A DNA stretch of 55,792 bases, the filler included, from Sphacelaria rigidula (taxonomy: Eukaryota), in NCBI GenBank assembly GCA_964200075.2. It is 4 parts of 4 records of this genome, joined end to end, with 100 filler letters (N's around TTAATTAATTAA, not from the genome) between each part and the next. Parts side by side here need not be neighbours in the genome. Positions count along the whole stretch, not along the records: positions 41,921 to 55,792 come from CAXNAA020002619.1; 3 more parts are not named here. One strand, given 5' to 3'. Below are positions 8,213 through 52,887 of this stretch, one piece after another (position 1 is the first letter of the stretch; every line of letters begins with the position of its first letter). A program made the translations under genes and the position numbers. The notes under the pieces are model-generated. The model did not search any database. It worked only from the letters and a program-made list of their open reading frames with translations, and was not told where the DNA came from.

Positions 8213-9514
8213 AGGGGCGGCGCCCCCCCCCCCCCCCCCCCACCCCCNNNNNNNNNNTTGTTTGTTTCTTTGTGTTGTTTTTTTGTTTGTGTTGTGGGGG
8301 GAGGGGGGGGGGGGGGGGGGGGGGGGGGGTGGTAGACAGCACATCGTGCCACCCCCCATCACCCCAATGCCCCTCACCCCGCCACACACCACAAACCACA
8401 CACCACACCGCAACTTGCTGCGAACCACACCGGTCTGCAACATGAGCCGCCTTCAGACTTTCGGCTTTGTGAAGGGCGGTAGCGCAGAGTCTGCGGTCGA
8501 CGTTTCTGCCGAACCGTCTGTATCTGTGTCTGCTATGGCGGCTGCTGCTGCACCAGTGGCCGCCCCAGTGCCCTCAACCAAGAGTGGAGAGAGCGGGCAA
8601 GCACAGTTTCCCGCGAACCCCGGCGTTTCTACAGTGTTCGCACGTTGCAGATGCGGTAGTTTAGCGGTATCTAGTGTGCAGACATCAGAAAGGGGGCGAA
8701 AGAGTACCGCGGATGCCTTGTGAATGTTTCAAGTAGGCGGGAGTGTTTCGCGTGTGAGGGTGGACAGTCATTTCTTCTCAGCATATCCAGTTTTTTCTAC
8801 AAGCTTTGAAATGCTATTGCTTCGGCGTTTAGGTATCTGGAGAGTATACTTCGTTGTGTAGCCGACAACGAACTAATTGGACCTATGCTGCCGACTTATC
8901 CCTTGTTTGGTATGGAGAACAGGAAGAGCGAGCGCGCATTTTCATTATCATTTTTCGCCCAGTTTCGACGTTTGGCGCGTTTGTTATTGAATAATGAGTG
9001 CGTTCGCAGTGCGCAGTGCGCATGGCCGAGGTATATGCTCAAATTCGATAGAAACATGACGGAATAGTGGCGACGGAATATCCTTTGGTGTATCACCGGC
9101 TTGAATAACACGCCATCATGCATCACACCTCGAGTTGTGATCAACGACCTCTTTTGCGACTTGCCCCTTGCACGATAAACCATTTTTGTCAAACCGGAAC
9201 GTCACGCCGCGTGGTGTGCCACCACTTCTATGATGTCAGATAACAAATCACAAATCTTACACCGGTGCTGCTGTACCTTCATACAATCAGGCGTCCACCC
9301 ACTTCGGGTTAGGTTGCTAGTGTCAGTGCAGTACCGGGAGGTCTTGCAAGCTGTGTCCCAACTAAAACAACCGTATCGTATCGTATCGTATCGAGTATCG
9401 ATACGTATCGGGTCATTTTCTGCGTATCGAAAAAAATATCGGTATCGACGTCTTGAGGTCGATACGTTGAAAATATCCTATCGAACTTTTTTTTCCGTTC
9501 GATATTCAACACTG
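8016..9514. mobile_element. Non-autonomous hAT-type DNA transposon in TFIIE-alpha intron 1
   Basis: 8-bp TSD CCAGATGC at 8008-8015 and 9515-9522; imperfect TIRs GAGCGTTGAAAATCG / CGATATTCAACACTG; dense subterminal TATCG/CGATA repeats at both ends. Confidence 0.8.
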
Positions 9515-11470: not shown

Positions 11471-12971
11471 TACATAACACATGTCCAAAGTTTGGTCGAG
11501 AAACTCGAAAATCTCGTACAGTTTTCCTTGCCTTGACGTAAAATTCGCCCAAAAAATACGTTTGAAAACTAGAACCAGGTAGTCAGGAGTTTGCACGTTT
11601 CACGCTCACGTCCTCGCACAAACGCGCAAACCTTCACGCAATTATTAGGAGTTAGACCGTCAAACTTTGAGTAATATGGGTCACTACGCAAGTTTCGATC
11701 AACAAGGTTCTTCTATTTCTTGACTTTTTCATCGTTTTTCGGGGGTCCGACGGGATCCAAGTCTTTTCTTCGAAGTCGTGGGTTGAAGTACAAAAAGCGC
11801 TGAAACAATGGATTAAAAAAAAGACGAAACTACTCGAACACAGTTGAGGGCCTGTACATACTGTAGTTCACCTTACTCATGGGACAGACAAAGTCGTATG
11901 TAGATATCGCGGGGAAGGAAGCAAACGCCCGGCTGATTTTGTGTGCAGATAGATATATTATTTATTGGCTTGCAAGCGCCAAGTTGAAGGGTACCCGGAA
12001 AGCACCTGCTACCGAAGGAAAACTCTTCATGAAGGAACTATGAGAAGAGGAGAGACGGCAGGAATTTTGAACGGCTCCCATTAGAGTTGGCCTTATATGG
12101 CCATTTTTCATGAAGAACGTCTCTGGAAACTGCTAGCCTTCTCCAGACAACGAGATTGGGAAAACTCTCCTCGCACACCGCACCCGCAATGGTACAGTCA
12201 GTGCTCCATCATACACTCCGCGCATACCAGTGTAGTACAGGACCGTGGCAACAGCATAGCTGCTGCAGCACTCCGTGCATCTTCATGACCTTAGGGCCAG
12301 GGACAGGCAGTACAAAGAGTAAAGTGCTTTTTCGACGGCAGTGTTACTACTATAAAATAGCACGATGTCGCCCCTGCTGGCTGTGTTGACTGGGCGTACC
12401 GTTTCATACTCGTCGTGTCCGCCACCGATTGTGAACTCTGAAGTATTCTGTGTACTGAGACGGTTGCTACCGCACTACTGACTGTCACGTGAGTTTGTTT
12501 TGTGCGGTATGGCACAAGCTGTACTGCTGCACACTGCACCGCTGGCGACACTGCTACTGTATCAAGCGGCGGTCGGCTGAAGGAAGGGTTGATACGCCTG
12601 CCATTTAGAACCCTATTCCACCAGTAGACACTCTGTGTGTGTATTGCCATCCCATCTATCCTGTACTTCGACGGGGGCACGCGCAAGTTTACCGCAGGTG
12701 ATACAAGGACAAAATGCAGATGATGACCACTACCACCGTCCGTACGCAGGTTAGATGATGACCTCGGGTGTACGGATCCCCAGGATTTTTTCATAAGACC
12801 ATGAAATCATAAGATGGGGTTTTTAAAACTGACTTTTTCTGAGAAAAGCCACTTAGGAAAGTCGTCCGCCCGAACTTTTTTCAGTCTATGAGAAGCGGCC
12901 CAAAGACGCGAATATTTTCATGTGTATTCGTTTTTTATATGTCAACGCTACATGTTTATGTATGTTTACAG

Positions 12972-13224
12972 GTATATAAAGGATAAGGATGAAGACCTGG
13001 GGAGTCGGCTCAACCTGAAGCCCACACAGACGCGGGCGGCGCTCCAGGACTTGGAGAACGAGGGGCTGGTGGCGAGGGAGGAGATGACGGACGAGATTTA
13101 TTTTGGGCGAAAGAGCTCGTACTGGTACATCGACCTTCGCCAAGCGGTGGCTGTCATTCGTCTTCGATTGCACGAGATGCAGACCATCTTGCAAAAGCAG
13201 GAGCAGGCCAAAAACGCGCAGCAG
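12972..13224 (+). CDS. GTF2E1: General transcription factor IIE subunit alpha, exon 2 (gene truncated by contig end)
   Basis: CAG|G acceptor completes the phase-2 codon AAG; YIKDKDEDLGSRLNLKPTQTRAALQDLENEGLV...SYWYIDLRQAVAVIRLRLHEM (winged-helix region, YWYID motif); donor CAG|GTATGT; zinc-ribbon exon not found in the contig. Confidence 0.85.
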
Positions 13225-13474
13225 GTATGTTGTATGTACTGTGTATTAACACTGTACGTGATAACGACATTTCTCGTTTTTCGTCGATTTTTTTTTTTCC
13301 GTTTTCTTGTTTTTTTGTCATCATCATCAAGTAGATATATAACGAATAATGGCTGAATGAATAAGTAATAGGGTTGATTTGCAGACAAGTATTCGCTCAT
13401 GTAACAAGTAGTAGTCTGTCCAGTATTTCGTCACACTTCAAGCTCCCCCCCTCCATATACACACATGTATATAT

Positions 13475-13874: not shown

Positions 13875-13974
13875 NNNNNNNNNNNNNNNNNNNNNNNNNN
13901 NNNNNNNNNNNNNNNNNNTTAATTAATTAANNNNNNNNNNNNNNNNNNNNNNNNNNNNNNNNNNNNNNNNNNNN
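13875..13974. other. Artificial contig linker
   Basis: 44 N + TTAATTAATTAA (stops in six frames) + 44 N. Confidence 0.97.
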
Positions 13975-27847: not shown

Positions 27848-27947
27848 NNNNNNNNNNNNNNNNNNNNNNNNNNNNNNNNNNNNNNNNNNNNTTAATTAAT
27901 TAANNNNNNNNNNNNNNNNNNNNNNNNNNNNNNNNNNNNNNNNNNNN
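27848..27947. other. Artificial contig linker
   Basis: Same 100-nt N/TTAATTAATTAA/N spacer. Confidence 0.97.
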
Positions 27948-33905: not shown

Positions 33906-34339
33906 TATTACTGTATACTCCGATGAAAGCGCGACTGCTAATGGCTAATTTTCGCTATCCCCCACATGTACTTGCTCGAAAAAAGTGGCTGCATGGGCGG
34001 TTCCTGTCTCCCCCATCTACAGCAATCAATATAAATATTTCTCATGTCCATCATCACAACTTCCTCCGCTGCGACTCGGTCGTCTCACTGACATGCGACC
34101 GAATCCAGTAACTTCCGAGGGAATGCCGGCCCAAATCTCGCCGGGCGCATCTGACGTTTTCTCGTGTGAGTCGTCTAATTTCAAAAGTGTTGAACGTGAG
34201 GTGGACATGAGGATGACAACGAGTTTTTGGCCCGAGCTAGGGTCTTCACGTCGCGGTCGTGCTGATTTCGCGTTGGTTTCGCCTAACATATGTTGTGCTC
34301 ACACTCTGAAACGTTGGACAGTACAACAACCCATCATAC

Positions 34340-34435
34340 CTTGGAATCGGGGATGGTAGCGGAGTGGTGGCGGTACTGCTGCAGCTGTAGATCGCTCATC
34401 AAAATAGGATCGGTCATGACTATCCACTTCACGCC
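34340..34435 (-). CDS. Alpha-carbonic anhydrase exon
   Basis: GVKWIVMTDPILMSDLQLQQYRHHSATIPDSK; 96 nt, AG/GT, phase 0. Confidence 0.9.
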
Positions 34436-34663
34436 CTGGAAGAGAAAGTCGCACACACACGTGAGCGTCCATGGGTGGGTGGAACAGGTGAGCATATCGC
34501 AGCGCAAAGCATATGCGTCAAAAACTTCCAGTTCAGTCACGAAGTCGTGTGTCTTTGCCAGTAGATACAGTACATGTCCGCCTAAATCTTCCCGTGGTAA
34601 CGTCCAAGTACTTTGTAACGTCCGAGTAACGTCCAAGTAGCGTCTAACTAACGTCTGACTAAC

Positions 34664-34807
34664 CTCTGTGCACGGCGGGGTGGTAAGGGAGCCCATGTAG
34701 TGCACGTAGGACGGGGTAGCCGGTAGCATTGCGTACACATCAGACGGGAACTCCTTCTCCGTAGTATCACGCTCATTGACGTTCAGGACAGACCACAGCT
34801 TATCGAT
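34664..34807 (-). CDS. Alpha-carbonic anhydrase exon (GSLTTPPC)
   Basis: IDKLWSVL...LPATPSYVHYMGSLTTPPCTE; 144 nt, AG/GT, phase 0. Confidence 0.95.
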
Positions 34808-35877
34808 CTGCGCCAAGCGGGTAGTTTGAAGTTTCGTGTGCGCAGTGGACGGGGGACGGAGGGGGGGGGAGATGGTGAATAAACACACATTTTTTACCTA
34901 GGTACGTTTGATGGAAGTTCTCGTGTCCATTTATCGCACGGGGGCTGATAGCTGACCGTTTGACAGATTCAGGAACGGCCGGTCTCGCGGAATAGAACAC
35001 AATGTTCATGGTTTCTGTTACCTTCGTGTGGCGGAATCTCCTGGTGAATTGGTTCAAGTCGACTCCAGAGGTTTTGTCAGACGGGATGACTACTTCACGT
35101 GAAATCATCTCAAGCAACCTCTGCCGCGAGCGTTACGGGACTCTTCATGTCGACTAATGCGCGTGTTGTCATCCCATCTTCTTGAACGCCACTCAACACT
35201 CATTGTCACGACTGGGCCATCGGAGCGACCAGGCTCGAATGCATTGAATTTGAAAGTCATGTAGTTATCTTGCCAATCAAATTACACCCCATCAAACGGG
35301 TCCGTCACAGGAGGTTGTTTTGCTAAATTCCAGCTGCAGAACTGCGTGGAACACCCCAGGTAATGGTCCATGGTAATCAACACTTCGCGGCGAATCTCCA
35401 TCCTACCGTGTTCCTAACAGCCGGCAGCGAAATACGATTCCATTTTTCCGTACATCCGAGGCGCTGAGAATCTTGGTTGATCTACACTTAGATATGGTTT
35501 GGGGAATCATCAGCTGGCGAAAAACCGAAAGTAATGTGACATACTCACCTGCACCCCCCGCGATTGAAAATTTACCTTTCTTCGGCACAGATTCGGAACT
35601 TCGCATTCAGGTGTTGGGCTGTGATAGTCTCAAGTTTTCGGCGGCGTGCACGTCATCATTGCAAGGGCGTCAATTTGACCTCTGTCGATGCAAAGCGAGG
35701 ATGAGTTTTCCCTCCCGCCTTAGACTCTCCAGTTCGCTTTGCTTGGTTCCATGACGAGGGCTGTGCTAGCTTGGGGATGTGACAAAAACAAGTCAGTGTT
35801 GACCACGGAATTGACACATGTTGCATGGAAAGTTGCGGCAATGTCACCGATCTGATACCGCACGCTTTTCATCTCAC

Positions 35878-41820: not shown

Positions 41821-41920
41821 NNNNNNNNNNNNNNNNNNNNNNNNNNNNNNNNNNNNNNNNNNNNTTAATTAATTAANNNNNNNNNNNNNNNNNNNNNNNN
41901 NNNNNNNNNNNNNNNNNNNN
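41821..41920. other. Artificial contig linker
   Basis: Same 100-nt N/TTAATTAATTAA/N spacer. Confidence 0.97.
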
Positions 41921-43323
41921 TGGCCTCACCATCGACCGTTGCTTCCCACGTGAGGTAGAAAAATGGGCATGTCTCCGCCGCTTCTAGGTATAACGCCGCC
42001 TTTGCTTTACACGTCTCCTTGCCAGGCTCAAACATTTTCCTCAGTTGTTGGTTGGTAGCTACCAAAATAAGGTGGATAAACTGCTCCTCTACAACATGGT
42101 CGATATTATGAAGGGCGTCCTCCGGAGTGTCGTTCATTTTTTACTTCCCCCAGACGGGAATATCCAGATAGGCGACGTCTTGGCCTTGTTTCGCGATCAC
42201 GTGCAGCCTGTTGACCTGATCTGGACTCGAAACTTGTGACCAAATTGGATTGCACGTGCGGCGGAGGTAAATGCGCGAGACGCGGTTCCTAGTCTCGTCG
42301 CGAAGAGAGGAAGCAATAATGTGTAATACACTTCAGGCATTCACTGTAGACGTGTGAAAACAGTACCGAGATCCTGCGACAATCCCCACCCCTCAGATTC
42401 TCAGCGATACACACTCTGCATGATCCCAAACGAAGGATTCGAAGCGCGATACGCATTCTGTCTGGTATGCCGTGCTCGTTTCCTTCGAAATCTCCGCGTC
42501 GCGACTAGAAGGGTGGGAGGTGACAAGACGACCCCCGAGTGATGGCCTTCTCACACGCCCGTCCCATAATTTAAGGCACTGAAGGGCAATAATACGTTGT
42601 CTGGGTATAATGGTCGTTGTGACGGCTTTACAGATGGGTTCGTTACGAAGTTAGAGGGCAGACTCAGCCGACGTGAAGATAGAATAACAAGTTCTTTACT
42701 TGAGATGGGCCGAAATATACCCAGGCATCGCACTTATTCTACTATTTCGAAGCACTCGTAAAAGGTTTTGGCCGTTGTCGAGCCGAACAGTGCTGGTTTT
42801 ACCAGCAAGGTTTGTCAGTGAAGAAGGCAGTGGGGTCCAACACACGGTAATACGTAAAACTAGTGATTGATTCGCGATTGTGATTATTGTTCGTTGTTTT
42901 TTTCGAATGTTGATTCTCTCCGGAGTTTAGAAAGGGGGGTGTGCGGCCATTTTCGGGCCTGATTATTTGTTTTCATTCGTACGAACCGAGCACCGAATGA
43001 AGACAAAATATGCTTTCAACCGAAAATTGACCAAAAATATAAGACAAAAATCGGACCAAGTGACCCTAACTCAGAAGTTCCTGCACGGCAACGCAAGCAT
43101 GATGATGAGCAGTCCAACAGAAAAACCGCCATCATTCATTGTCCTGCGTGTTTTAGCAGGACCTGCGTCTAAGCGCTACGAAACACGTAACAAAGCATAC
43201 TGAACACATACTTCTTTGGACTACAGTTGCGGCCTGCACTTAAGAACCTCCTATTTTGCGCAACCCTGGGAGTTCTCATTTCCTTTGTGGGTTATCACAG
43301 CTACGATATAGGTTTTAGTCTGG

Positions 43324-43587
43324 GTGGGATTCGAGTTCTTAAATTTCGTGAAAATCGAACCCTCGATTTCTTAACTACCAGGTTCTTAACCCTTAGACGA
43401 CGAGCGTCGCCTCGGAACAGTTGTACAGGCTGACAGTTCCGAGTTCTTAAAGTTCGTGTTAGTGTGCGTGGGATTCGAGTTAATCAATTTCGTGAAAATC
43501 GAACGCTCGATTTCTTAACTACCAGGTTCTTAACCCTTAGACGACGAGCGTCGCCTCGGAACAGTTGTACAGGCTGACAGTTCCGAG
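43324..43587. repeat. Tandem duplication with a period of about 144 bp
   Basis: GTGGGATTCGAGTT...TTTCGTGAAAATCGAA...GGAACAGTTGTACAGGCTGACAGTTCCGAG occurs twice, nearly identical. Confidence 0.85.
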
Positions 43588-46201
43588 ACATCCGGGGGTT
43601 TCCAAGGCTCGGGGGTGGGGGTGGTTTTTGAGAGGGGGGGTGTCTCTCCGCGGAGCATTGGAGAAGCTCATGGAGTCAACCATGTGTGTTTGAAAGTTTC
43701 CCGCGGAAAATTGTGAGCCGTGCACGAGGCCCGAGAGACGCGGGATAACCATTCAAACCAATCACGGTCGTCAAAATGGGCACTTTTGTTACGGTAGAGG
43801 TAAACACCTGGTAGACACATTCGCTGCCTACCCTCATAACTTATTTTGAGCATACCGAATCAACCATAGATTACATAACCAAAAAGTAGGCGTTTGAACA
43901 TCTTCGGTATACTGTGTCTGTCTGTTCAGTACTGCCTGAGCGTCGTACTAGCTCCACACATCCACCCGGTATCAAACGTTATGGCGCAACACGCGAGGGG
44001 CGGCCACGAGTACCCGACGCACGTCTATGTAGACAAGTACTCCGACGGTGAGGCGACCGCCGTCGCCGAGCAATTGCTCTACGGTAGTCTTGGGCGTTCG
44101 CGGCGGTAGTCATGGTGCGATATCCAAACGCATGCTGNNNNNNNTGTAACACTGTCAGATCCGGTACGCTGCAGACCGCACTTGCAGCCGCGGCACGATA
44201 CACTACAGATTGCACAGCAAAAATATGAGGCGTAATAATCAGGTGATCGAGATCCACACCGCCGTCTGTGTTATGACGCAGCTATGTACCTCTTATGCAC
44301 TCCCGGCCCCTTCCGCCGTAGAGTAGGCGTTTTGAGTTGTGATAAAGGAATAATTCTGAGCCCAAAAAGTGTAGTGTCTACCTCAGCCTACCAGCGGGGG
44401 GGTCGCTGTCTAAGGGTTAAGTGCGGGTCGCAACTATAGTCATCGAGTTTTTGAGCGCCTTTTGTTGAGTATCTGAGAGAGACTTCATACTGTTGCGCCG
44501 GCGACGGCCGCCGTCAGCGAAACGATCCAGTGTGGGGACAGACGCCAGCAATCTTTGAAACGTAGCACCATTCAGCAGTCTGCTGAGATATACCATCACC
44601 AGAGTACAGCATCACTACAGTACAGCCCATAAAATGGATACCCCACAATAAAGCTGCAGACACACACAACGGGGGTAAGGGTTAGTCCCACGCTTGGGGT
44701 TGTTTCGCCAGTAGTGCCCATGCGAGGCGTTTCACCCGGTCTGAACCAGCTATCACGCCTTGTATGGCCACCTCCGCCGTGGCTGTGTTGAGAACCGGTT
44801 TCGCGGTGAGGCTGTCGAACAATACTACTGTAGTGCAACGCGGTTGCGAAATCCGAGCCGTTTCTTTTTAACTTAGAGCCCGCATCAGCTGTAGTTTAAA
44901 TATCCCTCCTGACGGTCCCAACCGGGGTCTGACCCAGGGGCGGAAAGCGCTGGCACCCTCCCCCTCAGATAGGATTTGGGACAACTGTGGGGGTATTTGG
45001 GGAAGATCACTCGGAATGAAACATGTAGAGTAGTATTCAGGGGTATCGTAGTACATCTTTCCCTGTTCAAGCAGTCGAAATTTCCTTGCTTGAACGCTTT
45101 ATACCCGTTACAATGAACGACTGCTTTCCAAGAAAACCATCCGTAATTTCAGGACTTCCCCTGGGGTCTAATCCTAACGCTGAGGTTGTCACAAATCCTT
45201 GTGCTTTGTTTTCAGCGTTGCAATCTAGGTACGCGAAGCCCAGGCACGTGGAATGGCGCAAACGTTGCGTGTAGACCTGTTTGACCAGCGCAGCGGTTGA
45301 CCTCTTTCTTTCGATCAATCAGGCCTAAGAAATCATGGATTTAGTGATTGGAATCGGCGATGATTTGTCTGAACCGTGAAAATGTCTATAGGGTTGCACA
45401 CTAAGGCCCAGATATTTGTCATCGAGTGGCTCCTGCGACACAACCAAGCCTCAGGAAAAAAAGTGCATCCCTACCGTGGCACTGCTCTGTAAAAGAACAA
45501 CTACTGATGCCCCCACATATGCCGGAAGGCGTAGCCTGGCGTCCAGAATAGATGGGATGATAGCACACACACAACAGGGATACTTGTACACTCCACCAAT
45601 CAATCCAAACGCTTTCTGAGGTTGGAAACCAAGACCCAAATGGTTGTCATCGACAGGCTCCCACAGTGCAGAGCCCCAGAAAAAAAATCCACCCCTACCG
45701 TAGAACCACTCGTAAAACATACACGTACTCCGCGTGCCCGCGCTGCTATAGTCAACCTTTAGACTTGTGAACATGCGCAATGAACCCGGGCTATACAGGT
45801 TGGCAGGTGAGGAATACTGAATACTGTTTTCTTCTTCTAACTTTTCTTGTATACTAGATTCGGATTCCACGGGTAAGGGGTAGCTTTTGGTATACGTGGA
45901 ATTCAAATCGCGCGTGTCGACGAGAAGCTTCTGCGTGTGCTTGAGACGAAGTATATGGATGACGACTATTTGATGTTGTACAGATGGCAGAGTCTTGCAG
46001 ATCAGTTGTACTGAAATTGTGTGTGAAGCGGGTCGTACAGCTCGTCGCTTGCCAAATATATATGGATCAGGCGGTTTCTACAGGTGACAGAAAATTCCAT
46101 AAAATGAGGTTGTACGATGAAATGGGGTTCAAGCCCAAAACAGTGCTTTCCCGTCACTTTCAGCGATAGTGTTTAATGTCTTTTTTGTCGGCCTAAGGCC
46201 A

Positions 46202-46383
46202 CTCGATCGCGAAGATACTTGAGCGCATTTTACCGACTCTGTGAGCTTACAGCGCTGACTGAAACCGTGGTTTCCCCTGATCTGATATCACCCCCCCCTG
46301 AAATTAAGGGAAAATGACAATTTCGGTCAGCGCCGTAAGCTCAAAAAATGCGCTGAAAAGGTATCTACTCGTACGCGATCGAG
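46202..46383. mobile_element. Foldback/MITE-like inverted repeat
   Basis: CTCGATCGCG...AGCGCATTT...GAGCTTACAGCGCTGACTGAAA mirrored by TTTCGGTCAGCGCCGTAAGCTC...AAATGCGCT...CGCGATCGAG. Confidence 0.65.
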
Positions 46384-46741
46384 GTGCATCACGCCAACAA
46401 AAACGTCACTGGGCACCATCGCTGTCGAGTGAGGGGAAAGCACTGTTTCGGGCTTGAATATCTTTTCATCATACAACCTGATTTTATAGCATTGTCTGTT
46501 AGGTCACAATCAGACAAACGTGCACGGTTGACAACACACCTCCGACCGATTACGATTTATGCCCCAAATGAGCCGACCCGGATCTGTCACGAGCTGATCT
46601 GTCCGACGTTTGGTTGGTTCTGAGCATACAGCGCTCACCGGCTGCACACCCGGAAGGGGCGGTGGAGCGAGCGGTTTGTCTCAGTCATAGGTGTAGCTGT
46701 GATTGAGACACGACGCCCTCGCGCTGTTTCCTACAATGAAG

Positions 46742-46867
46742 GGTAGGTACGCCGACGCAGAGCTACTGTATGAGCGGTGCCAGGCGGTCCAGGAGAAGGT
46801 GCTCGGCCCTGAGCACCCGGAGCTGGCCACAACGCTTGACAGCCGTGCGCTACTGTATCAAGCTCAG
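46742..46867 (+). CDS. 42-aa TPR exon 1 (kinesin-light-chain/NB-ARC-TPR-type repeat)
   Basis: 126 nt, phase 0-0, GRYADAELLYERCQAVQEKVLGPEHPELATTLDSRALLYQAQ; AAG acceptor. Confidence 0.8.
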
Positions 46868-46990
46868 GTGAGCGGCGATAGAGACGTTTGGTTATGGTGT
46901 GTGGAAGTGTCAAGGGCCCTGTGTAAAGTTTGATGTTAGCTGTAGCTGTGACTGATACGCGACGCCCTCGCGATGTTTCCTACAATACAG

Positions 46991-47116
46991 GGTAGGTACG
47001 CCGACGCAGAGCCACTGTATGAGCGCTGCCAGGCGATCCAGGAGAAGGTGCTAGGCCCTGAGCACCCGGGTTTGGCCACAACGCTCGACAGCCGTGCGAG
47101 ATTGTATGATGCTCAG
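46991..47116 (+). CDS. 42-aa TPR exon 2
   Basis: 126 nt, GRYADAEPLYERCQAIQEKVLGPEHPGLATTLDSRARLYDAQ. Confidence 0.85.
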
Positions 47117-47422
47117 GTGAGAGCCAATGGAGACGTCTGGTTGTGGTTTGTTTGTGGATGTGTCAAGGTCCATGTGTGTGGTGCTTGATGCTGTTCGCTA
47201 ATGATGCTGCGGGCCGACGTCTTGTGAAGCCATAGATGCGGAGGAATCTACTCGTGACACGTCAGGGCCCTAAAGTTCAGGCGTCATGCTGTTGGTTTTG
47301 AGCATACAACGCTTACCGGTTGCACACCTGGGAGAAACAGTGGAGCGAGCGTCTCATCGCAGTGGTGAGTGTAGCTGTGACTGAGACACGACGCCCTCGC
47401 GCTGTTTCCTACAACGATGCAG

Positions 47423-47547
47423 GGTAGGTACGCCGACGCAGAGTCAATGTATGAGCGCTGCCAGGCGATCGAGGAGAAGGTGCTAGGCCCTCAGCACCCA
47501 GGGTGGCCACAACGCTCCATAATCGTGCGCTATCGAATGGTGCTCAG
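47423..47547 (+). pseudogene. TPR exon 3, frameshifted (125 nt)
   Basis: 1-nt deletion (CCCAGGGTGGCC vs CCCAGGGTTGGCC); splice sites intact. Confidence 0.8.
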
Positions 47548-47840
47548 GTGAGAGCTGATAGAGAGGTTCGGTTATGGTGTGTGGACGTGCCAACGGTCGT
47601 GTGTAGTGTTTGATGCTGTTCGCTGATGATGTGGGCTGAAGTTTTGTGAGGCCATGGGTGCGGCGGAAGTAACTCGTGGTACGTGAGGGCTGGAAGACCG
47701 GATGTAGTAATCTTGGTTCTGAGCATGGAGCGCTCACCGATTGCACACCTAGGAAGGGCAGTGCAGCGAGCGTCTCGCCGCAGTCGTGGGTGCAGCTGTG
47801 ACTGAGACACAACGCCCTCGCGCTGTTTCCTACAATGCAG

Positions 47841-47966
47841 GGTAGGTACGCCGACGCAGAGCCACTGTATGAGCGCTGCCAGGCGATCCAGGAGAAGGTG
47901 CTAGGCCTTCAGCACCCGGGTTTGGCCACAACGCTTCACAGCCGTGCAGGATTGTATGATGCTCAG
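47841..47966 (+). CDS. 42-aa TPR exon 4
   Basis: 126 nt, GRYADAEPLYERCQAIQEKVLGLQHPGLATTLHSRAGLYDAQ. Confidence 0.85.
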
Positions 47967-48265
47967 GTGAGAGCCGATGGAGACGTTTGGTTATGGTGTG
48001 TGGACGTGTCAAGGGCCCTCTGGAATGTTTGATGTTGTTCGCTGATGCTATGGGCCAACGTTTTGTGAGGCTATGGGTGCGGCGGAATCAAGTCGTGGTA
48101 GGTCAGGGCCGTGAAGACCGGACGTACGGTAGTACCGTTGGTTCTGCGCATACAGCGCCCACCGGCTGCACACGTGGAATGGACAGTGGAGCGGGCGTCT
48201 CGTCGCAGTCGTAGGTGCAGCTGTGACTGAGTTACGACGCCCTCGCGCTGTTTCCTGCGATGCAG

Positions 48266-48391
48266 GGTAGGTACGCCGACGCAGAGCCACTGTATGAGCG
48301 CTGCCAGGCGATCCAAGAGAGGGTGCTAGGCCCTCAGCACCCAGGGTTGGCCACAACGCTGCACAGCTGCGCGAGATTGTATCATACTCAG
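48266..48391 (+). CDS. 42-aa TPR exon 5
   Basis: 126 nt, GRYADAEPLYERCQAIQERVLGPQHPGLATTLHSCARLYHTQ. Confidence 0.85.
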
Positions 48392-48599
48392 GTGAGAGCC
48401 GATAGAGACGTTTGGTTGTGGTGTGTGGACGTGTCAAGTAGATGAGTGGTGGTCGATGTTGTTCGCTGATGCTACGGGGCAACGTCTTGTGAGGTCATCG
48501 GTGCAGCGGAAGTAACTCGTGATACGTGAAGGCCGTGAAGACCGGGCACACTAAGCGTACAGCGCTCACGACGCCCTCGTGCTGTTTCCTACAATACAG

Positions 48600-48725
48600 G
48601 GTAGGTACGCCGAGGCAGCGCCGCTGTATGAGCGCTGCCAGGCGATCCAGGAGAAGGTGCTAGGCCCCGAGCACCCGGGGTTGGCCACAACGCTCGACAG
48701 CCGTGCGAGATTCTATAAAGCTCAG
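48600..48725 (+). CDS. 42-aa TPR exon 6
   Basis: 126 nt, GRYAEAAPLYERCQAIQEKVLGPEHPGLATTLDSRARFYKAQ; donor GTTAGA. Confidence 0.85.
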
Positions 48726-48879
48726 GTTAGAAACGATAGCGACGTGTGGTTGGGGTTTGTTGACGTGTTAACGGCGCCGTGAGATGTTTGATGTTATTCG
48801 CTGATGCTGTGGGCCAACAGTTTGTGGGGCCATGGATGCCGAGGAATCAACCCGTGGTACGTCATATCGGTGAATGGTG

Positions 48880-49650
48880 CCACTCTGTTCCGAAACATAA
48901 GGCCCGTTTGAAAAAAAAACGAAATATAAGCCCCGTGTACACATTGACATGTATACGACTCCCCAGCTCTTCTAGAGCCATGGAAATACTTGCATACACT
49001 ATCGCGAGGAACGGGGAGGAAAAAAAATGTTCAGGGTGACCAGGGGACACCAGGAATCCATCCCCGGGTTTTCACTGCATCAGGTGATGAAATGATGCTG
49101 GTAAGTCCGGTGTTCCAGGTGATGTAGTATCTCCAATACCTTTACCTGGACGATGAACTGCATGGGAATGCGGTAGGAACAGTTTGGGGATGAAAAAAAG
49201 CATTCCCTGGGGTAACCAGGGGATGCGCGAATATCATCCCCGGGTTTTCAATTCAGAAGATCCGGGGATGATATTACTCTGGAGTAGTCCCCCTTCCGCA
49301 GAATGCCGTTGTTGCTGCCTTTGAGAAGCTCGGCAATCACAGCGATTCGCTCGTCATCGTTGAGGTTCTTTCTCTTGGGTGTCTCGGCAACACTTTCATC
49401 GCTAGACATGTTTCTGTACACTACCGGATGGCCTCTTTTAACCACTTTGGAAGAAGCGAGCTCTGTGCAGTGCTTCTTGAGGGTGGGTGTGTGTGGGCGG
49501 GACTGTCAATTTTTGAAAAAAAAAGCGGTTGGTTCTTTCAGGCGGGAGCGGCGCGAATACGATGCAAAAAAGCGTTAAAACAAAATCGCCTTTCATCCGA
49601 AGTTATGCCGCAAAATCCCCAAACGGGGCTTATGTTTCGGAACAGAGTGG
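48880..49650 (-). mobile_element. Internally deleted Tc1/mariner (plant-mariner/Stowaway-like) element in TPR intron 6
   Basis: TIRs of about 31 bp, CCACTCTGTTCCGAAACATAAG(G/C)CCCGTTTG, with one mismatch; TA at the right end; the minus-strand remnant MSSDESVAETPKRKNLNDDERIAVIAELLKGSNNGILRKG resembles a mariner-like transposase N-terminus. Confidence 0.8.
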
Positions 49651-49812
49651 TACGTCATATCGGTGAAGACCGAGTGTAGTAGCGTTGGTTTCGAGCATTC
49701 AGTGCTCACCGGATGCACACCTGGGAGGGGCAGTGCAGCGAGCGTGTCGTCGCAGTCGTAGGTGCAGCTGTGACGGAGACACGATGCCCTCGCGCTGTTT
49801 CCTACAATGAAG

Positions 49813-49926
49813 GGTAGGTACGCTGCCGCAGAGCCCTGCAAGGCGATCCAGGAGAAGGTGCTAGGCCCTGAGCACCCGGGGTTGGCCACAACGCTCCACA
49901 GCCGTGCGCTATTGTATCATGCTCAG
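49813..49926 (+). CDS. TPR exon 7 with an in-frame 12-nt deletion (38 aa)
   Basis: 114 nt, GRYAAAEP----CKAIQEKVLGPEHPGLATTLHSRALLYHAQ; AAG acceptor. Confidence 0.7.
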
Positions 49927-50220
49927 GTGAGCGGCGATAGAGACGTTTGGTTATGGTGTGTGGACATGTCAAGGGCCCTGTGTGGTGCTTGATGTTGTTC
50001 GCTGATTCCATGGGCCAACGTCGTCTGAGGTCATGGTTATGGTGGGATCTACTCGTGGTACGTCAGGGCCGAGAAGACCGGGCGTAGTACCGTTAATACG
50101 GAGCATACAGCGCTCACCGGCTGCACACCCGGTCGGGGCGGTGAAGCGAGCGTCTCGCCGCAGTCGCAGGTGAAGCTGTGACTGAGACACGACGCCCTCG
50201 TGCTGTTTCCTACAATGCAG

Positions 50221-50346
50221 GGTAGGTACGTCGACTCAGAGCCACTGTATGAGCGCTACCAGACGATCGAGGAGAAGGTGCTAGGCCCTCAGCACTCGAG
50301 GTTGGTCACAATGCTCCACAATCATGCGGTATTGTATGGTGCTCAG
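50221..50346 (+). CDS. 42-aa TPR exon 8 (most diverged)
   Basis: 126 nt, GRYVDSEPLYERYQTIEEKVLGPQHSRLVTMLHNHAVLYGAQ. Confidence 0.75.
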
Positions 50347-52887
50347 GTGAGAGCCGATAGAGATGTTTGATTATGGTGTGTGGGCGTGTAAAGGGCCATG
50401 TGTAGTGTTTGATGCTGTTCGCTGATGCTGCGGGGCCATGGGTGCGGCGGAAGTAACTTGTGGTACGTCACGGTCATGAAGACCAGATGGAGTACCGTTG
50501 ATATTGAGCATGCAGGGCTACCGGCTGCGCACCGGGGAGGAGCGGTCGGGCGAGCGTTCCGCCGCAGATTTGGGTTGAGCTGTGACTTTGTGGCCAACCT
50601 GTCATCACCGTGAGGTTTGGGGATCGGGGGTTTCACGCTCGATTCTAAGGATACAATACCTGCTGGGTGCACAATAGGGCTGGGTTGTGACAACAGCTGG
50701 CTCGCCACAGTGGCTGGTTCGATTTCGTGTGAGTTTCGGTGTCGCGGGTCCGGCCAGCGATACAGTATGTCCTGTGCGCCGGGGCACTCGATGTGGCAAC
50801 GGTGGGTCAGAACTGGGCGTTTTTGCCAGCGGGGAACAGCGATGATGTAGGTGCTTTCAGGAGAGAAATGACTTTGACACTGCCTTCCCCTCAATCGTGC
50901 GATTCTGCTTTCAAGGATCTTTTCGATGCATGTCCCGGTGCTTTCGTGTGGTCCGCGTGTTTTCGTGTTGTACTGTAGGTCTACAACTTGGATTTCGCAC
51001 GATCGGTGATGCTCAAAACCGTCCTAGTGAGCTAAATAGTGTATTGCGTGCCGGCACCACACGCGCAAGAGGTCCACCCATGCTGTCCGCAGGAGCGGCA
51101 GTATCTACTGAATTCCGGCCAAACGTTTTCGACCCAAATGACGCACACTGGTGGGAAAAGGCTTCAATCTCTCTGTTGCGAAGACATTATTCAGTGTGTC
51201 GTCAACTGGCCAGCTCATGGACCTTCTTCGGGAGGGGCACATGTCAATTCGAGAGTTTGTAGCATGTGCATGATGAACATAAATAAGGTCAAACTCTTGT
51301 TGATAGCCAATCGTGATCGGAAACCGAAACAAACGTGCCCCTTGGAATATCGATGCTGATGCGTCTTGTTCGAGCAAGCACGCGGAATGTCTCTCGAGAG
51401 GGAACCATGCTCATGTCCAAAGCTACGTGCAGGTTATTGTGCATGCCTCGATACAACCTGTACCAATCGTATTTGTCATAGGACGCGAACCATGAGTACG
51501 GCCCAATATCGTCGCGCAAGTAAGGCATCCTGAGTCAACCGCATCTGCCGGGTGTCGCTGAACCGAGTCGCGAATTGATTGACGTGCCTCTTTGTGTTGC
51601 AAGACCTGCCCGAGACCAGTTTCACCGGTCCTCCAACATGACATATGCAGCCTCATCACTGCACTAGAAATATCCTCATTCATATCTGTACCCAACAACT
51701 AAAGCAAGTCGAGAGTTGACTGGCGTGGCAGGTTATTTCACATAATCTTGGTACGCTGAATTTCCTCCTTCTCGGGCCGTGATGCTCTTTTTCGTCTTGA
51801 TGAACCACAACATTGAGCTCACAACCGAATGCAACCTCTGGCAATATCGAGCATCCTTCCGCAATGGATGCGTAGAATAGTATACGGCATTAGTCGCAGA
51901 TGCCGTATCACATTAAACCATTTCGCATGTCTGTTGCCGTTAATTGGTCAAGGATCGTTCGTGCTCATCTGCAGCTCGAAGTTATCATCCTGAGTCATTT
52001 TTTCGTGCCACTTTTTTGTTCAATACATTGATACATATATTCGGATTTATAAGTTTTGCTCCACACAAAAATTGATCAACATGGGCTGCGCTTGCTGTCG
52101 CGCCAGCACATGAGCCCACATGAATAGATCCCATCGTGCTGATAGATTCGTTTCATTGCGGTATTCATGCCCTGCTGGAAACGGATCCCCAACCCTGCGC
52201 GCCGTCCATCTTGGTACACTGTATGATCCGGTGGGTTGCCGGGCGTTGTCAATAATGATGACAATATCCATGTCCATCATAACATATGTCCCATGCGAGG
52301 ATGAACGGGACTGTCACTATTCGGATCCTGAGTGTACGTATTTGTGACTACACAAATTGTCGTTGCCATCACTCCTTGAAAGGGTGTACACTCACCGAAT
52401 ACTACTTGTAAATGGTCAATCTCGCTGTGATAACGCCGGTGCTTGGTCCGTGGTGCATAACTCTGACGGCTGTCGCCTCCCTAGAGTCGGCTGCCAATGT
52501 GACGAAACTATTGGCCTACACACCGCTGAACCCGTCTCGTCACACCACTCCCCGCACCGCCAGAGCTCTCATAAAGCTGTCAGACATCGCGGCCAAGACC
52601 GCCGTGCTGGCTCCGCTGTTAGTGTTCGACGCCGGCGCTGCTCCTCTATTGGCGATTGATAGCACGAGCACACGAGCCTGGAGTTTGGGAGAGGTGGATC
52701 GCGACCTCCGCAAGATCAGTTACCGTGACCATCGCTGAGGTTGGCAGTGTCTTTTCCGCGCCCAGCGCTCGCCCCACCCGTTGCCTGCTTCATGATAATC
52801 CTTAGACCGTGGTGGTAGTCCATCTGGATCATGCATACTTTTTTCGAGTGAAATTGATGCCGGTTCGAACAAATGACTTACTCTCGC

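Follow-up and report, generated by a model that had tools for sequence, protein, structure and literature searches.

A stretch of the brown alga Sphacelaria rigidula genome (assembly GCA_964200075.2), lying at 46742 to 50346 of the window analysed here (the whole of 55,792 nucleotides, assembled from four parts with filler between them), raises two related questions: whether a tandem series of TPR exons that differ at a few codons carries a recognition code diversified by selection, and whether the series is still part of a working gene. We consider it fairly probable that the array derives from the NB-ARC-TPR (NLR-like) family and bears the family signature of diversifying selection on the ligand groove, and that it is most likely a fragment that is decaying or has lost its function.

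The array consists of eight phase-0 exons on the plus strand, 46742-50346, each encoding one 42-residue TPR unit of the kinesin-light-chain (KLC) type. The units start at 46742, 46991, 47423, 47841, 48266, 48600, 49813 and 50221, the same 10-nt word opens all eight, and every one has AG before it and GT after it. Six exons are 126 nt long, one 125 nt and one 114 nt, and since all are in phase 0 with a 126-nt unit, any subset of them would be spliced in frame. Each 126-nt exon supplies helix B of one TPR together with the linker and helix A of the following TPR.

The intervening introns are likewise repeated, with TRF periods of 249 and 425 (the latter with 3.8 copies and 82% matches), and the whole array of eight exon-plus-intron units, delimited by sequence reading, TRF, flank alignments and tblastn, spans 46606..50583 on the plus strand. 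In the flank alignments, the repeated-intron homology begins mid-intron at about 46606 and ends mid-intron at about 50583, roughly 35 nt short of where a ninth exon would start. Plus-strand tblastn matches of 10 relatives were confined to 46607-50367; their single minus-strand match (47795-47935) was judged spurious, and reading the array revealed no TPR unit on the minus strand. The intron upstream of copy 2 measures only 123 nt, that upstream of copy 6 is shortened, and that between copies 6 and 7 holds a transposon-like insertion (48877..49653, no strand assigned), recognised from its repeats and word depth. The insertion ends in inverted repeats of 34 nt, and copies of a 21-nt direct repeat flank it (48854-48874 and 49647-49667); its summed word depth in the DNA runs X3 and X4 is 80-430, against 10-45 in most neighbouring bins, and loose contig ends from these runs fall at its borders.

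Individually, the plus-strand exons range from intact to clearly damaged. Seven single exons were scanned with Pfam TPR_12 (cutoff 30.1 bits; copy 3 left out), and five reached the cutoff (33.8-44.7 bits). Copy 1 (46742..46867; D5 S6 L9 Q12; 33.8 bits) is intact at 126 nt and 42 amino acids, with an AAG instead of a CAG acceptor. Copy 2 (46991..47116, 126 nt; D5 S6 R9 D12; 40.6 bits), also intact, is the nearest to the consensus. Copies 4 (47841..47966; H5 S6 G9 D12; 35.5 bits), 5 (48266..48391; H5 S6 R9 H12; 44.7 bits) and 6 (48600..48725; D5 S6 R9 K12; 35.1 bits) are 126 nt long and in frame, copy 4 with P37L, copy 5 with R7C, K33R and A13T, and copy 6 with a GTTAG instead of a GTGAG donor. 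These five are the undamaged copies. Copy 3 (47423..47547, 125 nt; H5 N6 L9 G12 in the ancestral frame) is inactivated by a 1-nt deletion that shifts the frame, and L10 is additionally changed to S and Y11 to N; the deletion is not peculiar to this assembly, because a contig of run X3 spans 47468-47841 without gaps. Copy 7 (49813..49926, 114 nt; H5 S6 L9 H12), a truncated TPR-like exon behind an AAG acceptor, has lost 12 nt in frame, so that codons P22-R26 (P-L-Y-E-R) are lost or disrupted. Copy 8 (50221..50346, 126 nt; H5 N6 V9 G12) is in frame and eroded, with A18V, A20S, C27Y, A29T, P40S, G41R, A1V, T3M and R7H; it holds 12 amino-acid states absent from all other copies, those at scaffold A20 and at A1 among them. 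Copies 7 and 8 fall below the cutoff (24.7 and 20.7 bits).

With ATTL taken as TPR positions 1-4, copies 1 to 8 read DDHHHDHH at position 5, SSNSSSSN at position 6, LRLGRRLV at position 9 and QDGDHKHG at position 12, and the letters given by the original prediction proved exact on recheck. The multi-base codon switches that it had pointed out are also present (CTA three times and AGA three times at position 9; AGC six times and AAT twice at position 6), as is a near-constant scaffold, with L4, A8, G15 and Y17 retained in 8/8 copies, Y11 and A20 in 7/8 and Y24 in 7/7. Its claim that variation is focused on positions 5, 6, 9 and 12 stands for 9 and 12, which are clearly hypervariable, and needs to be qualified for the other two, since position 5 is a D/H dimorphism and position 6 reflects one inferred amino-acid change, S to N, common to the damaged copies 3 and 8. 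Linker position 38 (EEQQQEEQ, E and Q at 4:4), which had been overlooked, is as diverse as position 5, and the ranking of positions by diversity runs 12, 9, 38, 5, 22. Nevertheless, the excess variability at the noted codons is more than chance: the summed amino-acid diversity of codons 5, 6, 9 and 12 was matched by 2 of 20000 random four-codon sets, and that of the a-priori HOP contact set {2,5,6,9,12,13} by 74 of 20000 random six-codon sets. In EukProt protein P0005, the closest relative, 12 near-identical repeats vary at positions 31, 12, 6, 41, 9, 22, 5 and 42. NN is indeed the usual reading of positions 5-6 in this repeat type, as the original prediction stated: 66 of 113 repeats from relatives have it, as do 456 of 764 from other matches, and DS or HS occurs in 0 of the 113. 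In the array, the conserved N5-N6 pair has become D/H-S/N.

The register of the repeat is canonical, in that position 1 of the Pfam TPR_2 profile coincides with the A of the equivalent ATIL in P0005. In the AlphaFold model of P0005 (pLDDT about 75-90 across the TPR part), helix A spans TPR positions 40-13 and helix B spans 17-34; ranked by target TM-score, the structures most similar to the model are TPR domains of KLC1/2 (TMt up to 0.89; for 7ai4_A, TMt 0.88 and rmsd 2.4 A). Residues 594-795 of P0005 align with 6fv0_A without gaps (domain E=1e-39, whole-sequence E=2.9e-50). Through this alignment, the KLC1 residues that the available text of PMC6214655 describes as touching JIP1 and TorsinA peptides correspond to TPR positions 2, 5, 6, 9, 10, 12, 13, 17 and 31: N259/N301/N343 fall on position 5, N302/N344/N386 on 6, V305/L347 on 9, R266 on 12, K309/N351 on 13, K340 on 2 and R327 on 31. 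According to the same portion of that source, replacing N by S at position 5 switches the peptide specificity of KLC1/KLC2. Independently, Magliery and Regan (2005; PMC1261162), as far as their text is available, name positions 2, 5, 9, 12, 13, 33 and 34 as the most variable TPR positions, on the concave face, and give 2, 5, 6, 9, 12 and 13 as HOP ligand contacts. Positions 5, 6, 9, 12 and 31 thus match peptide-contact residues of the concave KLC1 groove, by homology rather than by coordinates, in agreement with the groove assignment first made for 5, 6, 9 and 12; all lie in helix A except 31, which is in the last turn of helix B of the P0005 model. The variable positions 38, 22 and 41 are outside the listed contacts.

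As for the family, the proteins closest to a single exon are brown-algal, and several carry NB-ARC (PF00931). P0005 shares 79% and P0003 (Scytosiphon) 74% identity with one exon, and the matches include P0009 of Ectocarpus siliculosus, named 'NB-ARC and TPR repeat-containing protein - likely pseudogene'. Among the 120 matches listed, the top identities (65-79%) belong to Ectocarpus, Scytosiphon, Sphacelaria and unnamed EukProt proteins, most with PF00931, and bacterial CHAT-TPR proteins reach 55-69%; the nearest relatives of the repeat among these matches are thus brown-algal NB-ARC-TPR members. The array further shares with the family, as characterised in the available text of Zambounis et al. 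(2012; PMC3341825), a TPR domain made of 126-nt exons that each encode a 42-residue unit (a 34-residue TPR plus linker), and its damaged copies 3, 7 and 8 all lie on the plus (coding) strand. Copies 1, 2, 4, 5 and 6, above the Pfam cutoff and with a canonical scaffold, conform to the KLC type of TPR (TPR_12/TPR_10).

The N-terminal NB-ARC of the family was not found in any of the 242 stop-to-stop ORFs of at least 80 aa in the window, and in these ORFs TPR was the only Pfam domain near the array. Beyond the array, tblastn of the 10 relatives returned nothing in the window, and a profile of the N-terminal part of eight relatives, run against 1861 six-frame fragments of the window, gave a best E-value of 7.3. 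Hence no NB-ARC or other N-terminal exon was detected in the 46.7 kb upstream, where the genes recognised are unrelated (ribosomal L7/L30, TFIIE alpha and carbonic anhydrase), or in the 5.2 kb downstream, with which the window ends; the window contains small N runs, and exons of an unrecognised kind would escape such searches. A C-terminal cap repeat of the kind present in P0003, P0009, P0021 and P0034 was likewise not found in the window.

Could the array nonetheless be the working TPR domain of a live gene, with N-terminal exons beyond the window or of an unrecognised kind, and with groove selection still under way? Copy 3, and perhaps copies 7 and 8, would then be skipped as inactivated exons inside introns, and such skipping would preserve the frame since phase 0 is kept throughout; inactivated TPR exons within introns of otherwise intact genes are described in the available text of Zambounis et al. 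(PMC3341825). Five intact exons with GT/AG borders that reach the Pfam cutoff, and an omega of 0.21-0.23 outside the hot codons in these exons, are consistent with a live gene. That omega, together with exons about half as diverged as introns, fits past constraint and equally the present function of copies 1, 2, 4, 5 and 6. However, the lack of N-terminal homology over 46.7 kb and of a cap repeat, the transposon within one intron, the AAG acceptors of copies 1 and 7 and the GTTAG donor of copy 6 all argue against a live gene. In addition, the listed differences between samples are equally dense in exons (at least 8 in 995 nt) and introns (at least 15 in 2202 nt), although these are small numbers, and the listed exon differences comprise 5 nonsynonymous and 3 synonymous changes. 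None of the listed data sets that contain the stretch is recorded as RNA. On balance, we regard a live gene as rather unlikely, and the array locus is probably no longer functional. The missing N-terminal exons, the homology bounded mid-intron, the frameshifted, truncated and eroded exons and the intronic transposon are all features that point to a fragment, although the boundaries are no proof of truncation, because tandem ends in a true gene also stop abruptly in intron homology.

Whether the excess variability reflects selection was examined by comparing rates. Diversity at the four noted codons is 0.26-0.375, against 0.12-0.22 in introns and 0.09-0.10 at other exon sites. Fitch parsimony gives 1.63 changes per site at codon positions 1 and 2 of the four codons, compared with 0.72 in introns and 0.36 in other codons; nonsynonymous change at the noted codons thus exceeds both intronic and synonymous change. 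When the five undamaged copies are considered, the four codons have a pN of 0.29, compared with a pN of 0.055 and a pS of 0.187 elsewhere. Under our own maximum-likelihood codon model (fixed tree, eight short paralogous exons), omega is 4.1 for the set 5/6/9/12, which was chosen post hoc, 3.0 for the HOP set defined a priori (p=0.004 in the test against omega=1) and about 0.5 for the remaining codons. Site models, again in our own implementation with a fixed tree and eight sequences, favour M2a over M1a (2dlnL=17.9, p=1.3e-4); with still fewer sequences, p is 0.02 for the five undamaged copies and 0.088 for the six in-frame copies. Only positions 9 and 12 are picked by M2a, with posterior 1.00, and the choice of sites is the same under a star tree and when the data are limited to the five undamaged copies. 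The site-model check on the eight local copies may therefore support the prediction for positions 9 and 12, and it does not pick 5 and 6.

An alternative without positive selection is that the hot codons are unconstrained surface sites evolving near the neutral rate, and that exchange among paralogues mimics an excess of change on a single tree. Indeed, a single tree is not a sound assumption for eight paralogous exons among which sequence may be exchanged, such exchange inflates positive-selection tests of the kind run here, and one tree may not fit because intron and exon distances are uncorrelated (r=-0.19), as expected from mosaic histories. Partition tests against omega=1 also fail with the five undamaged copies (set 5/6/9/12, omega 2.5, p=0.076; HOP set, omega 2.0, p=0.145), and by parsimony the a-priori groove sets show no significant excess of change over introns (p=0.07 and 0.18). 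Moreover, groove hypervariability across the superfamily is put down, in the available text of Magliery and Regan (PMC1261162), to ligands that differ from protein to protein, for which omega above 1 is not needed. By contrast, M2a is preferred in three of four data sets (p=1.3e-4, 6e-8 and 0.02; 0.088 in the fourth), and positions 9 and 12 have an omega2 of 5-20. Position 12 shows five different residues and five inferred changes in eight copies, and position 9 four, versus an average of 0.7 changes in each of the 38 codons outside 5, 6, 9 and 12; the single-step links among the five codons of position 12 are all nonsynonymous. The near-identical repeats of P0005 are hypervariable at the same positions, and published site models of 124 Ectocarpus TPR exons favoured selection, according to the accessible part of PMC3341825. 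We therefore find the purely neutral account improbable, more so than a live gene.

Under the reading that we prefer, an NB-ARC-TPR family fragment, the family signature would consist of diversifying selection on residues that contact the ligand, together with duplication and shuffling of exons. The copies have diverged most at helix-A positions 9 and 12, less at 5 and marginally at 6 and 31, and the scaffold residues and most other codons have been under purifying selection. The proposal of diversifying selection on a recognition code thus holds in that the sites face the ligand and change in excess, with the reservations that only 9 and 12 pass the site model, that the partition tests lose significance with the undamaged copies, and that the idea is already published (PMC3341825, PMC4986451). 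Selection for new ligand specificities probably drove the variability. With no NB-ARC partner in the window and with three of its exons damaged, the array is unlikely to be under selection now, and the selection signal is best read as inherited from the NB-ARC-TPR family.

We think it very improbable that the array is instead maintained as an NB-ARC-less store of exons to be copied, by conversion or shuffling in germ line or soma, into NB-ARC-TPR receptor genes elsewhere: its isolation from any NB-ARC in the window despite conserved undamaged exons, the decoupled exon and intron histories, and a summed contig depth of exon 2 several-fold that of its flanks in X3 and X4 (not a copy number, but indicating that near-identical exon 2 words occur elsewhere in the genome) would fit such a store, as would the targeted somatic recombination hypothesised in the available text of Zambounis et al. 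(PMC3341825), whereas recombination products, signal sequences and donor-acceptor pairs did not turn up, plain decay accommodates the damaged exons and the transposon, and the one in-array joint in DNA contigs (a single X4 contig, skipping 47981-48797) has 21 letters on its shorter side, below a reliable level. If true, brown algae would thereby possess a combinatorial repertoire for recognition, a possibility on which Zambounis et al. speculated.

Taking the array as a family fragment, it adds one further example, from another genome, of one-repeat-per-exon TPR arrays in brown-algal NLR-like genes, and leaves the current picture of the NB-ARC-TPR family unchanged. What it contributes is a canonical TPR numbering for the hypervariable residues (9 and 12, then 5, 31 and 6), which ties them to the peptide contacts of KLC1 crystal structures; this mapping was left undetermined for TPR in 2012 (table 1 of Zambounis et al., PMC3341825, which in its available part gives 'n.d.'). 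The array and P0005 also mark a sub-lineage in which the otherwise conserved N5-N6 pair, whose counterpart in KLC hydrogen-bonds to the ligand backbone, became variable.

The closest known system is the set of Ectocarpus NB-ARC-TPR genes, for which Zambounis et al. (2012; PMC3341825) report, in the text available, 126-nt, 42-aa TPR exons with one repeat per exon in 13 of 24 NB-ARC loci; 5 of the 24 are given as pseudogenes, the inactivated exons lie on the coding strand, and models with selection are preferred for the TPR exons. The array is like these genes in its 126-nt exon per 42-residue unit, its coding-strand inactivated exons, its site models that lean towards diversifying selection and the marks of birth-and-death evolution with pseudogenes, and unlike them in having no NB-ARC in the window; positions 5-6 of its repeats are D/H-S and position 11 is Y, whereas relatives mostly have N-N and L. 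Fungal NB-ARC/NACHT-TPR NLR proteins share the 42-residue KLC-like repeat with high internal conservation and few variable sites, and the sequence of P0005 matches two Podospora structures of 42-residue repeats, 4Y6C and 4Y6W. On a KLC2 template, the selected or polymorphic sites of the fungal proteins are all concave (Dyrka et al., 2014; PMC4986451), so the groove-variable pattern is already described both for the brown-algal family (PMC3341825) and for these fungal relatives. However, the fungal repeats lie in one exon and show repeat-number polymorphism, unlike the exon plus repeated intron that makes up each unit of the array. The KLC1/KLC2 TPR domain (6FUZ, 6FV0, 3ZFW) has the same fold and register and, in the available descriptions, binds peptide on its concave face via positions 2, 5, 6, 9, 12, 13 and 31. 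Unlike the array, it has a fixed set of six non-identical repeats, in which N-N pairs are conserved, and the family is not fast-evolving. We know of no ligand for algal TPR arrays. Finally, brown-algal LRR-ROCO genes and the VLR cassettes of jawless vertebrates resemble the array in their modular repeats with variable residues on the concave face, and the ROCO genes also in one repeat per exon and shuffling; they differ in their LRR fold and, in the case of VLR, in their demonstrated somatic assembly.

The tandem array extends over about 46606-50583 on the plus strand, with periods of 249 and 425 nt (Tandem Repeats Finder), and comprises eight exon copies opened by the same 10-nt word at 46742, 46991, 47423, 47841, 48266, 48600, 49813 and 50221. 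A pyrimidine-rich stretch ending in AG precedes each exon (CAG acceptors in six units, with AAG instead in copies 1 and 7), GTGAG directly follows seven of the exons and GTTAG follows copy 6, and the introns flanking the exons are themselves repeated across units. All eight units are in phase 0. Six exons are 126 nt long; copy 3, at 125 nt, has a 1-nt deletion and is therefore frameshifted, and copy 7 was shortened to 114 nt by an in-frame 12-nt deletion, with P22-R26 missing. The layout of a unit is G-R-Y...(helix B)...L-G-P-E-H-P...A-T-T-L...(helix A)...Q, and each exon thus joins the second helix of one TPR, through a linker, to helix A of the following TPR. The acceptor region (..ACAATGCAG, or ACAATGAAG in copies 1 and 7; 46736-46741 and before the other exons) includes an ATG in the exon frame, 6 nt upstream, which probably arises as a side effect of splice-signal conservation. 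Among the matches listed, no extra cryptic TPR exons were found in the introns, where the tblastn alignments beyond the eight exons are in-frame read-through with stops.

Single exons differ in their preservation. Five of the seven scanned (copies 1, 2, 4, 5 and 6, at 33.8-44.7 bits) reach the Pfam TPR_12 cutoff of 30.1 bits, with copies 7 (24.7 bits) and 8 (20.7 bits) under it and copy 3 left out of the scan. In copy 3, L10 and Y11 are lost, and the frameshift is also present in a contig from a second sample (sequencing run X3) covering 47468-47841 with no gaps. Copy 8 is eroded, with 12 amino-acid states present in no other copy. We refer to copies 1, 2, 4, 5 and 6 as undamaged, and to copies 3, 7 and 8 as damaged.

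The numbering that takes ATTL as TPR positions 1-4 is canonical: in P0005, a database relative of the array, residues 954-984 open with the equivalent A-T-I-L and match positions 1-31 of the Pfam TPR_2 profile. The original prediction held that a nearly constant scaffold carries variation focused on positions 5, 6, 9 and 12. The scaffold residues are indeed kept in seven or eight of the eight copies, and the states from copy 1 to copy 8 are exactly as predicted, i.e., DDHHHDHH at position 5, SSNSSSSN at position 6, LRLGRRLV at position 9 and QDGDHKHG at position 12, including genuine multi-base codon switches (CTA vs. AGA at position 9, AGC vs. AAT at position 6). The focus holds in part: positions 9 and 12 are robustly hypervariable, position 5 has two states and two inferred changes, and position 6 has a single inferred change common to damaged copies 3 and 8. 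Variation that the prediction had omitted includes an even E/Q dimorphism at linker position 38 (EEQQQEEQ) and variable positions 31, 41 and 22.

The four predicted codons are more diverse than expected by chance, with their summed pairwise amino-acid diversity matched by 2 of 20000 random four-codon sets. Because they had been picked after looking, a-priori sets defined by the literature were tested as well; the ligand contacts of HOP, given as positions 2, 5, 6, 9, 12 and 13 in the available text of Magliery and Regan (2005; PMC1261162), were matched in diversity by 74 of 20000 random sets. In the five undamaged copies (Nei-Gojobori), pN was 0.29 at the four codons compared with a pN of 0.055 and a pS of 0.187 at the other 38. 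Nucleotide diversity was 0.26-0.375 at the four codons, 0.12-0.22 in the aligned intron flanks and 0.09-0.10 in the rest of the exon, so that the codons exceeded the introns as well. The excess recurred on a parsimony tree, ((1,7),(2,6),(4,(5,(3,8)))), built from introns and exon columns minus the four codons: introns showed 0.72 changes per site (78 over 109 sites), codon positions 1 and 2 of the other codons 0.36 (27 over 76), and the same positions of the four codons 1.63 (13 over 8; p = 0.009 vs. introns, post hoc). The a-priori sets exceeded the other codons by parsimony (p = 9e-4 and 2e-3), and showed no significant excess over introns (p = 0.07 and 0.18).

Site-model dN/dS was estimated with our own GY94-type maximum likelihood implementation, using F3x4 frequencies and a fixed topology. 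Across eight copies, M0 gave an omega of 0.70, whereas partitioned values were 4.1 for the four predicted codons (p = 6e-4 vs. 1), 3.0 for the HOP set (p = 0.004), 2.05 for the KLC1 contact set (p = 0.046) and about 0.5 for the remaining codons. M2a was favored over M1a (2dlnL = 17.9, p = 1.3e-4), with 5% of sites at an omega of about 11 and a posterior above 0.5 solely at positions 9 and 12 (both 1.00), leaving out positions 5 and 6, and a star tree returned the same two sites. When only the five undamaged copies were used, M2a still won (p = 0.02; 1.00 for site 12 and 0.96 for site 9) and the remaining codons had an omega of 0.21-0.23, while the partitions did not differ significantly from omega = 1 (2.5 for the predicted set, p = 0.076; 2.0 for the HOP set, p = 0.145). 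For the six in-frame copies, the M2a comparison gave p = 0.088. These selection tests rest on eight short paralogous sequences and one fixed tree, and exchange between the repeats is possible.

Across the eight units, intron distances do not correlate with exon distances (r = -0.19), and therefore mosaic histories are likely. Copies 1 and 7, for instance, are the pair with the most similar introns (distance 0.08) but not the one with the most similar exons, and copy 2 combines a near-consensus exon with divergent introns. Either uneven decay or an exchange of exon tracts among the units could account for the mismatch. Diversifying selection, as originally proposed, is favored by M2a at positions 9 and 12 and not by the partition tests on undamaged copies, and we infer that the pattern reflects selection rather than drift together with exchange. 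A mutational hot spot was set aside by inspection, as positions 5, 9 and 12 have changed mostly by transversion or at two bases of the codon, and not by CpG transition.

The variable positions correspond to residues that bind peptides in kinesin light chains. Residues 594-795 of P0005 form an ungapped alignment with 6fv0_A, a TPR chain of KLC1, at E = 1e-39 for the domain and 2.9e-50 for the whole sequence; adding 200 to the index of this chain gives KLC1 numbering (checked on Q222, R266, V305, Y313, R327 and K340). According to the available text of Pernigo et al. (2018; PMC6214655), the KLC1 residues holding the JIP1 and TorsinA peptides sit on the concave surface. Transferred through the P0005 alignment, these contacts fall on TPR positions 2 (K340), 5 (N259, N301, and N343), 6 (N302, N344, and N386), 9 (V305 and L347), 10 (L348), 12 (R266), 13 (K309 and N351), 17 (Y313) and 31 (R327); the list of contacts does not include positions 38, 22 and 41. 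The same text explains the difference in peptide specificity between KLC1 and KLC2 by N-to-S exchanges at position 5, and Magliery and Regan (2005), in the portion available, place the most variable TPR positions (2, 5, 9, 12, 13, 33, and 34) on the concave face. Since positions 5, 6, 9 and 12 map to concave-face contacts, a convex or buried location is not indicated for them; the mapping is by homology to KLC1 contacts and by helix positions, as distinct from measured geometry. In a single-sequence AlphaFold model of P0005, helix A runs from position 40 to 13 and helix B from 17 to 34, with a pLDDT of about 75-90 in the TPR part and below 50 in the N-terminal half (residues 64-555). The best structural matches of this model by target TM-score are KLC1 and KLC2 TPR domains (TMt at most 0.89; 7ai4_A 0.88, rmsd 2.4 Å).

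One exon, searched against longer proteins, matched 1328 of 1348 candidates at E ≤ 0.001, of which 120 were listed. Among the matches listed, P0005, a EukProt entry with NB-ARC and 12 near-identical repeats, has the highest identity (79%). Identity is 74% for P0003 from Scytosiphon (TIR, NB-ARC, and TPR) and for the EukProt entries P0006, P0008 and P0021, and further high-identity relatives listed are P0016 from Sphacelaria and P0009 from Ectocarpus siliculosus, the latter named [quoted passage not shown]. Half of the ten relatives examined bear brown-alga names, the other five being EukProt entries with shared architecture. The top-scoring database protein, P0001 (Ectocarpus sp., 1916 aa, unnamed product), has a C-rich out-of-frame peptide recurring many times between TPR halves, and appears to be a gene model running through the introns and shifted frames of a TPR exon array.

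Repeat statistics were drawn from 113 repeats, extracted by regular expression from nine relatives after P0001 (one unit) was dropped. N occupies position 5 in 74 of these repeats and position 6 in 90, and NN occurs in 66, as well as in 456 of the 764 repeats of 110 other listed proteins (mostly bacterial), which agrees with the expectation that this repeat type usually reads NN at positions 5-6. By comparison, DS or HS was found in none of the 113 repeats from the nine relatives. Mean within-protein entropy in the relatives peaks at positions 31, 41, 13, 9, 3, 12 and 2, and the near-identical repeats of P0005 vary at 31, 12, 6, 41, 9, 22, 5 and 42. The N5-N6 pair varies in both the array and P0005, which thus belong to one sub-lineage where this pair has turned variable.

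Stop-to-stop ORF matches mark the window as eukaryotic, including ribosomal protein L7/L30 (2394-2861, minus strand), TFIIE alpha (12892-13353, plus strand) and a eukaryotic-type carbonic anhydrase (34337-34897, minus strand). None of the 242 window ORFs of at least 80 aa encodes NB-ARC or another N-terminal part of the family, tblastn matches of ten relatives to the window are confined to 46607-50367, an N-terminal profile of eight relatives gave a best E of 7.3 against 1861 six-frame fragments of the window, and no C-terminal cap repeat was matched in the window. About 110 nt upstream of the array is a nested inverted repeat (46087-46499), a foldback of about 410 nt whose arms measure 72, 51 and 37 nt and are 85, 75 and 81% complementary, which could be a foldback/MITE element or a source of hairpin RNA. 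A 144-nt tandem repeat at 43315-43587 (1.9 copies, 95% matches) is unrelated to the TPR array. Runs of N (8248-8257, 13875-13974, 27848-27947, 41821-41920, and 44138-44144; 281 bases in total) all lie outside the array; several are paired 44-nt blocks 12 nt apart, being masked or unresolved stretches.

The intron between copies 6 and 7 harbors a 777-nt element (48877-49653) whose terminal inverted repeats are 34 nt each (48877-48910 and 49620-49653). A direct repeat of 21 nt flanks the element (whole span 48854-49667). Its summed depth of 80-430 in runs X3 and X4, compared with 10-45 in most neighboring bins, and the loose ends at its borders indicate a multicopy transposon, and it is multicopy in the DNA runs X3, X4 and X5 (summed depth up to 433). 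It is probably a non-autonomous DNA transposon. An 85-aa ORF within it (49251-49505, minus strand) has a weak DUF7769 match below cutoff.

Summed depth in X3 and X4 over exons 2, 6 and 7 (47002-47135, 48610-48743, and 49816-49949) is several-fold that over the introns, for example 365 vs. 15-33 in X4, and although this is not a copy number, it implies that near-identical exon words recur at many sites elsewhere in the genome. Outside the transposon there are at least 23 differences between samples (at least 8 exonic and at least 15 intronic), too few to test the focus of variation. The listed exonic differences number 8 in 995 nt (5 nonsynonymous and 3 synonymous, with S6N and T2S in copy 2), and the intronic ones 15 in 2202 nt, a similar density, albeit from small numbers. 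In X8, a small library that may be RNA (a guess), the contigs are only 31-40 nt long, apart from a 151-nt contig that aligns over 32 letters, and they fall with one mismatch apiece on the conserved Q-A-I-Q-E-K-V-L-G-P-E-H (47030-47069, copy 3, and 49849-49878), with word depth up to 2275. Of the 23 X8 contigs, 21 fit two places of the window. The contigs derive from paralogues or small RNAs and not demonstrably from the array locus.

The array stands alone in the window, as the searches for N-terminal and cap parts show, and signs of decay are the intronic transposon, the copy 3 frameshift and the similar density of sample differences in exons and introns. Most likely, then, it represents a fragment of the brown-algal NB-ARC-TPR family that is in decay, and the differences between its copies most likely arose earlier, under selection acting on the exons or on their ancestors. 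Alternatively, the locus may be a live gene that skips its damaged exons. The homology of the repeated introns starts at about 46606 and stops at about 50583, each time within intron sequence, and these abrupt ends do little to separate the two readings because the tandem array of a live gene would end likewise. A third reading, that the array is a store of cassettes for conversion into receptor genes, could draw on the mosaic histories and on the exon words found elsewhere in the genome, but we consider it very improbable.

Most likely, intact members of the family carry their C-terminal TPR solenoid on an NB-ARC switch, with each exon adding one structural unit and leaving the frame undisturbed. 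Duplication, loss and exchange of exons would then alter the length and order of the solenoid, and groove-facing helix-A substitutions would alter binding, at positions 9 and 12 first, then at 5, 6, 13 and 2, with helix B contributing position 31. Binding would presumably occur in the groove as in KLC, and the ligands might be pathogen-derived or otherwise variable.

The essentials of the array have already been published for the brown-algal family and its fungal relatives; the small additions here are canonical TPR numbers for the hypervariable sites, matched to KLC1 residues, and a sub-lineage with a variable 5-6 pair. The Ectocarpus NB-ARC-TPR loci of Zambounis et al. (2012; PMC3341825) are, judging from the available text, of exactly the same kind. 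That text describes a TPR domain of 42-aa exons in 13 of 24 NB-ARC loci, five of the 24 loci as probable pseudogenes, and inactivated exons (by nonsense, loss of a splice site, or truncation) that sit in introns, almost only on the coding strand. Models M2, M3 and M8 were favored there for 124 TPR exons, and in Table 1 of the paper the TPR entry for structural meaning reads "n.d.". TPR and NB-ARC exons are also predicted miRNA targets in Ectocarpus, according to the accessible part of published work, and NB-ARC-TPR orthogroups are expanded in brown algae, according to that of a 2024 preprint on 60 genomes. Fungal NB-ARC-TPR proteins show the same pattern: in the portion available of Dyrka et al. 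(2014; PMC4986451), their repeats are highly conserved with three positively selected sites, and a model based on KLC2 places all polymorphic sites on the concave side.
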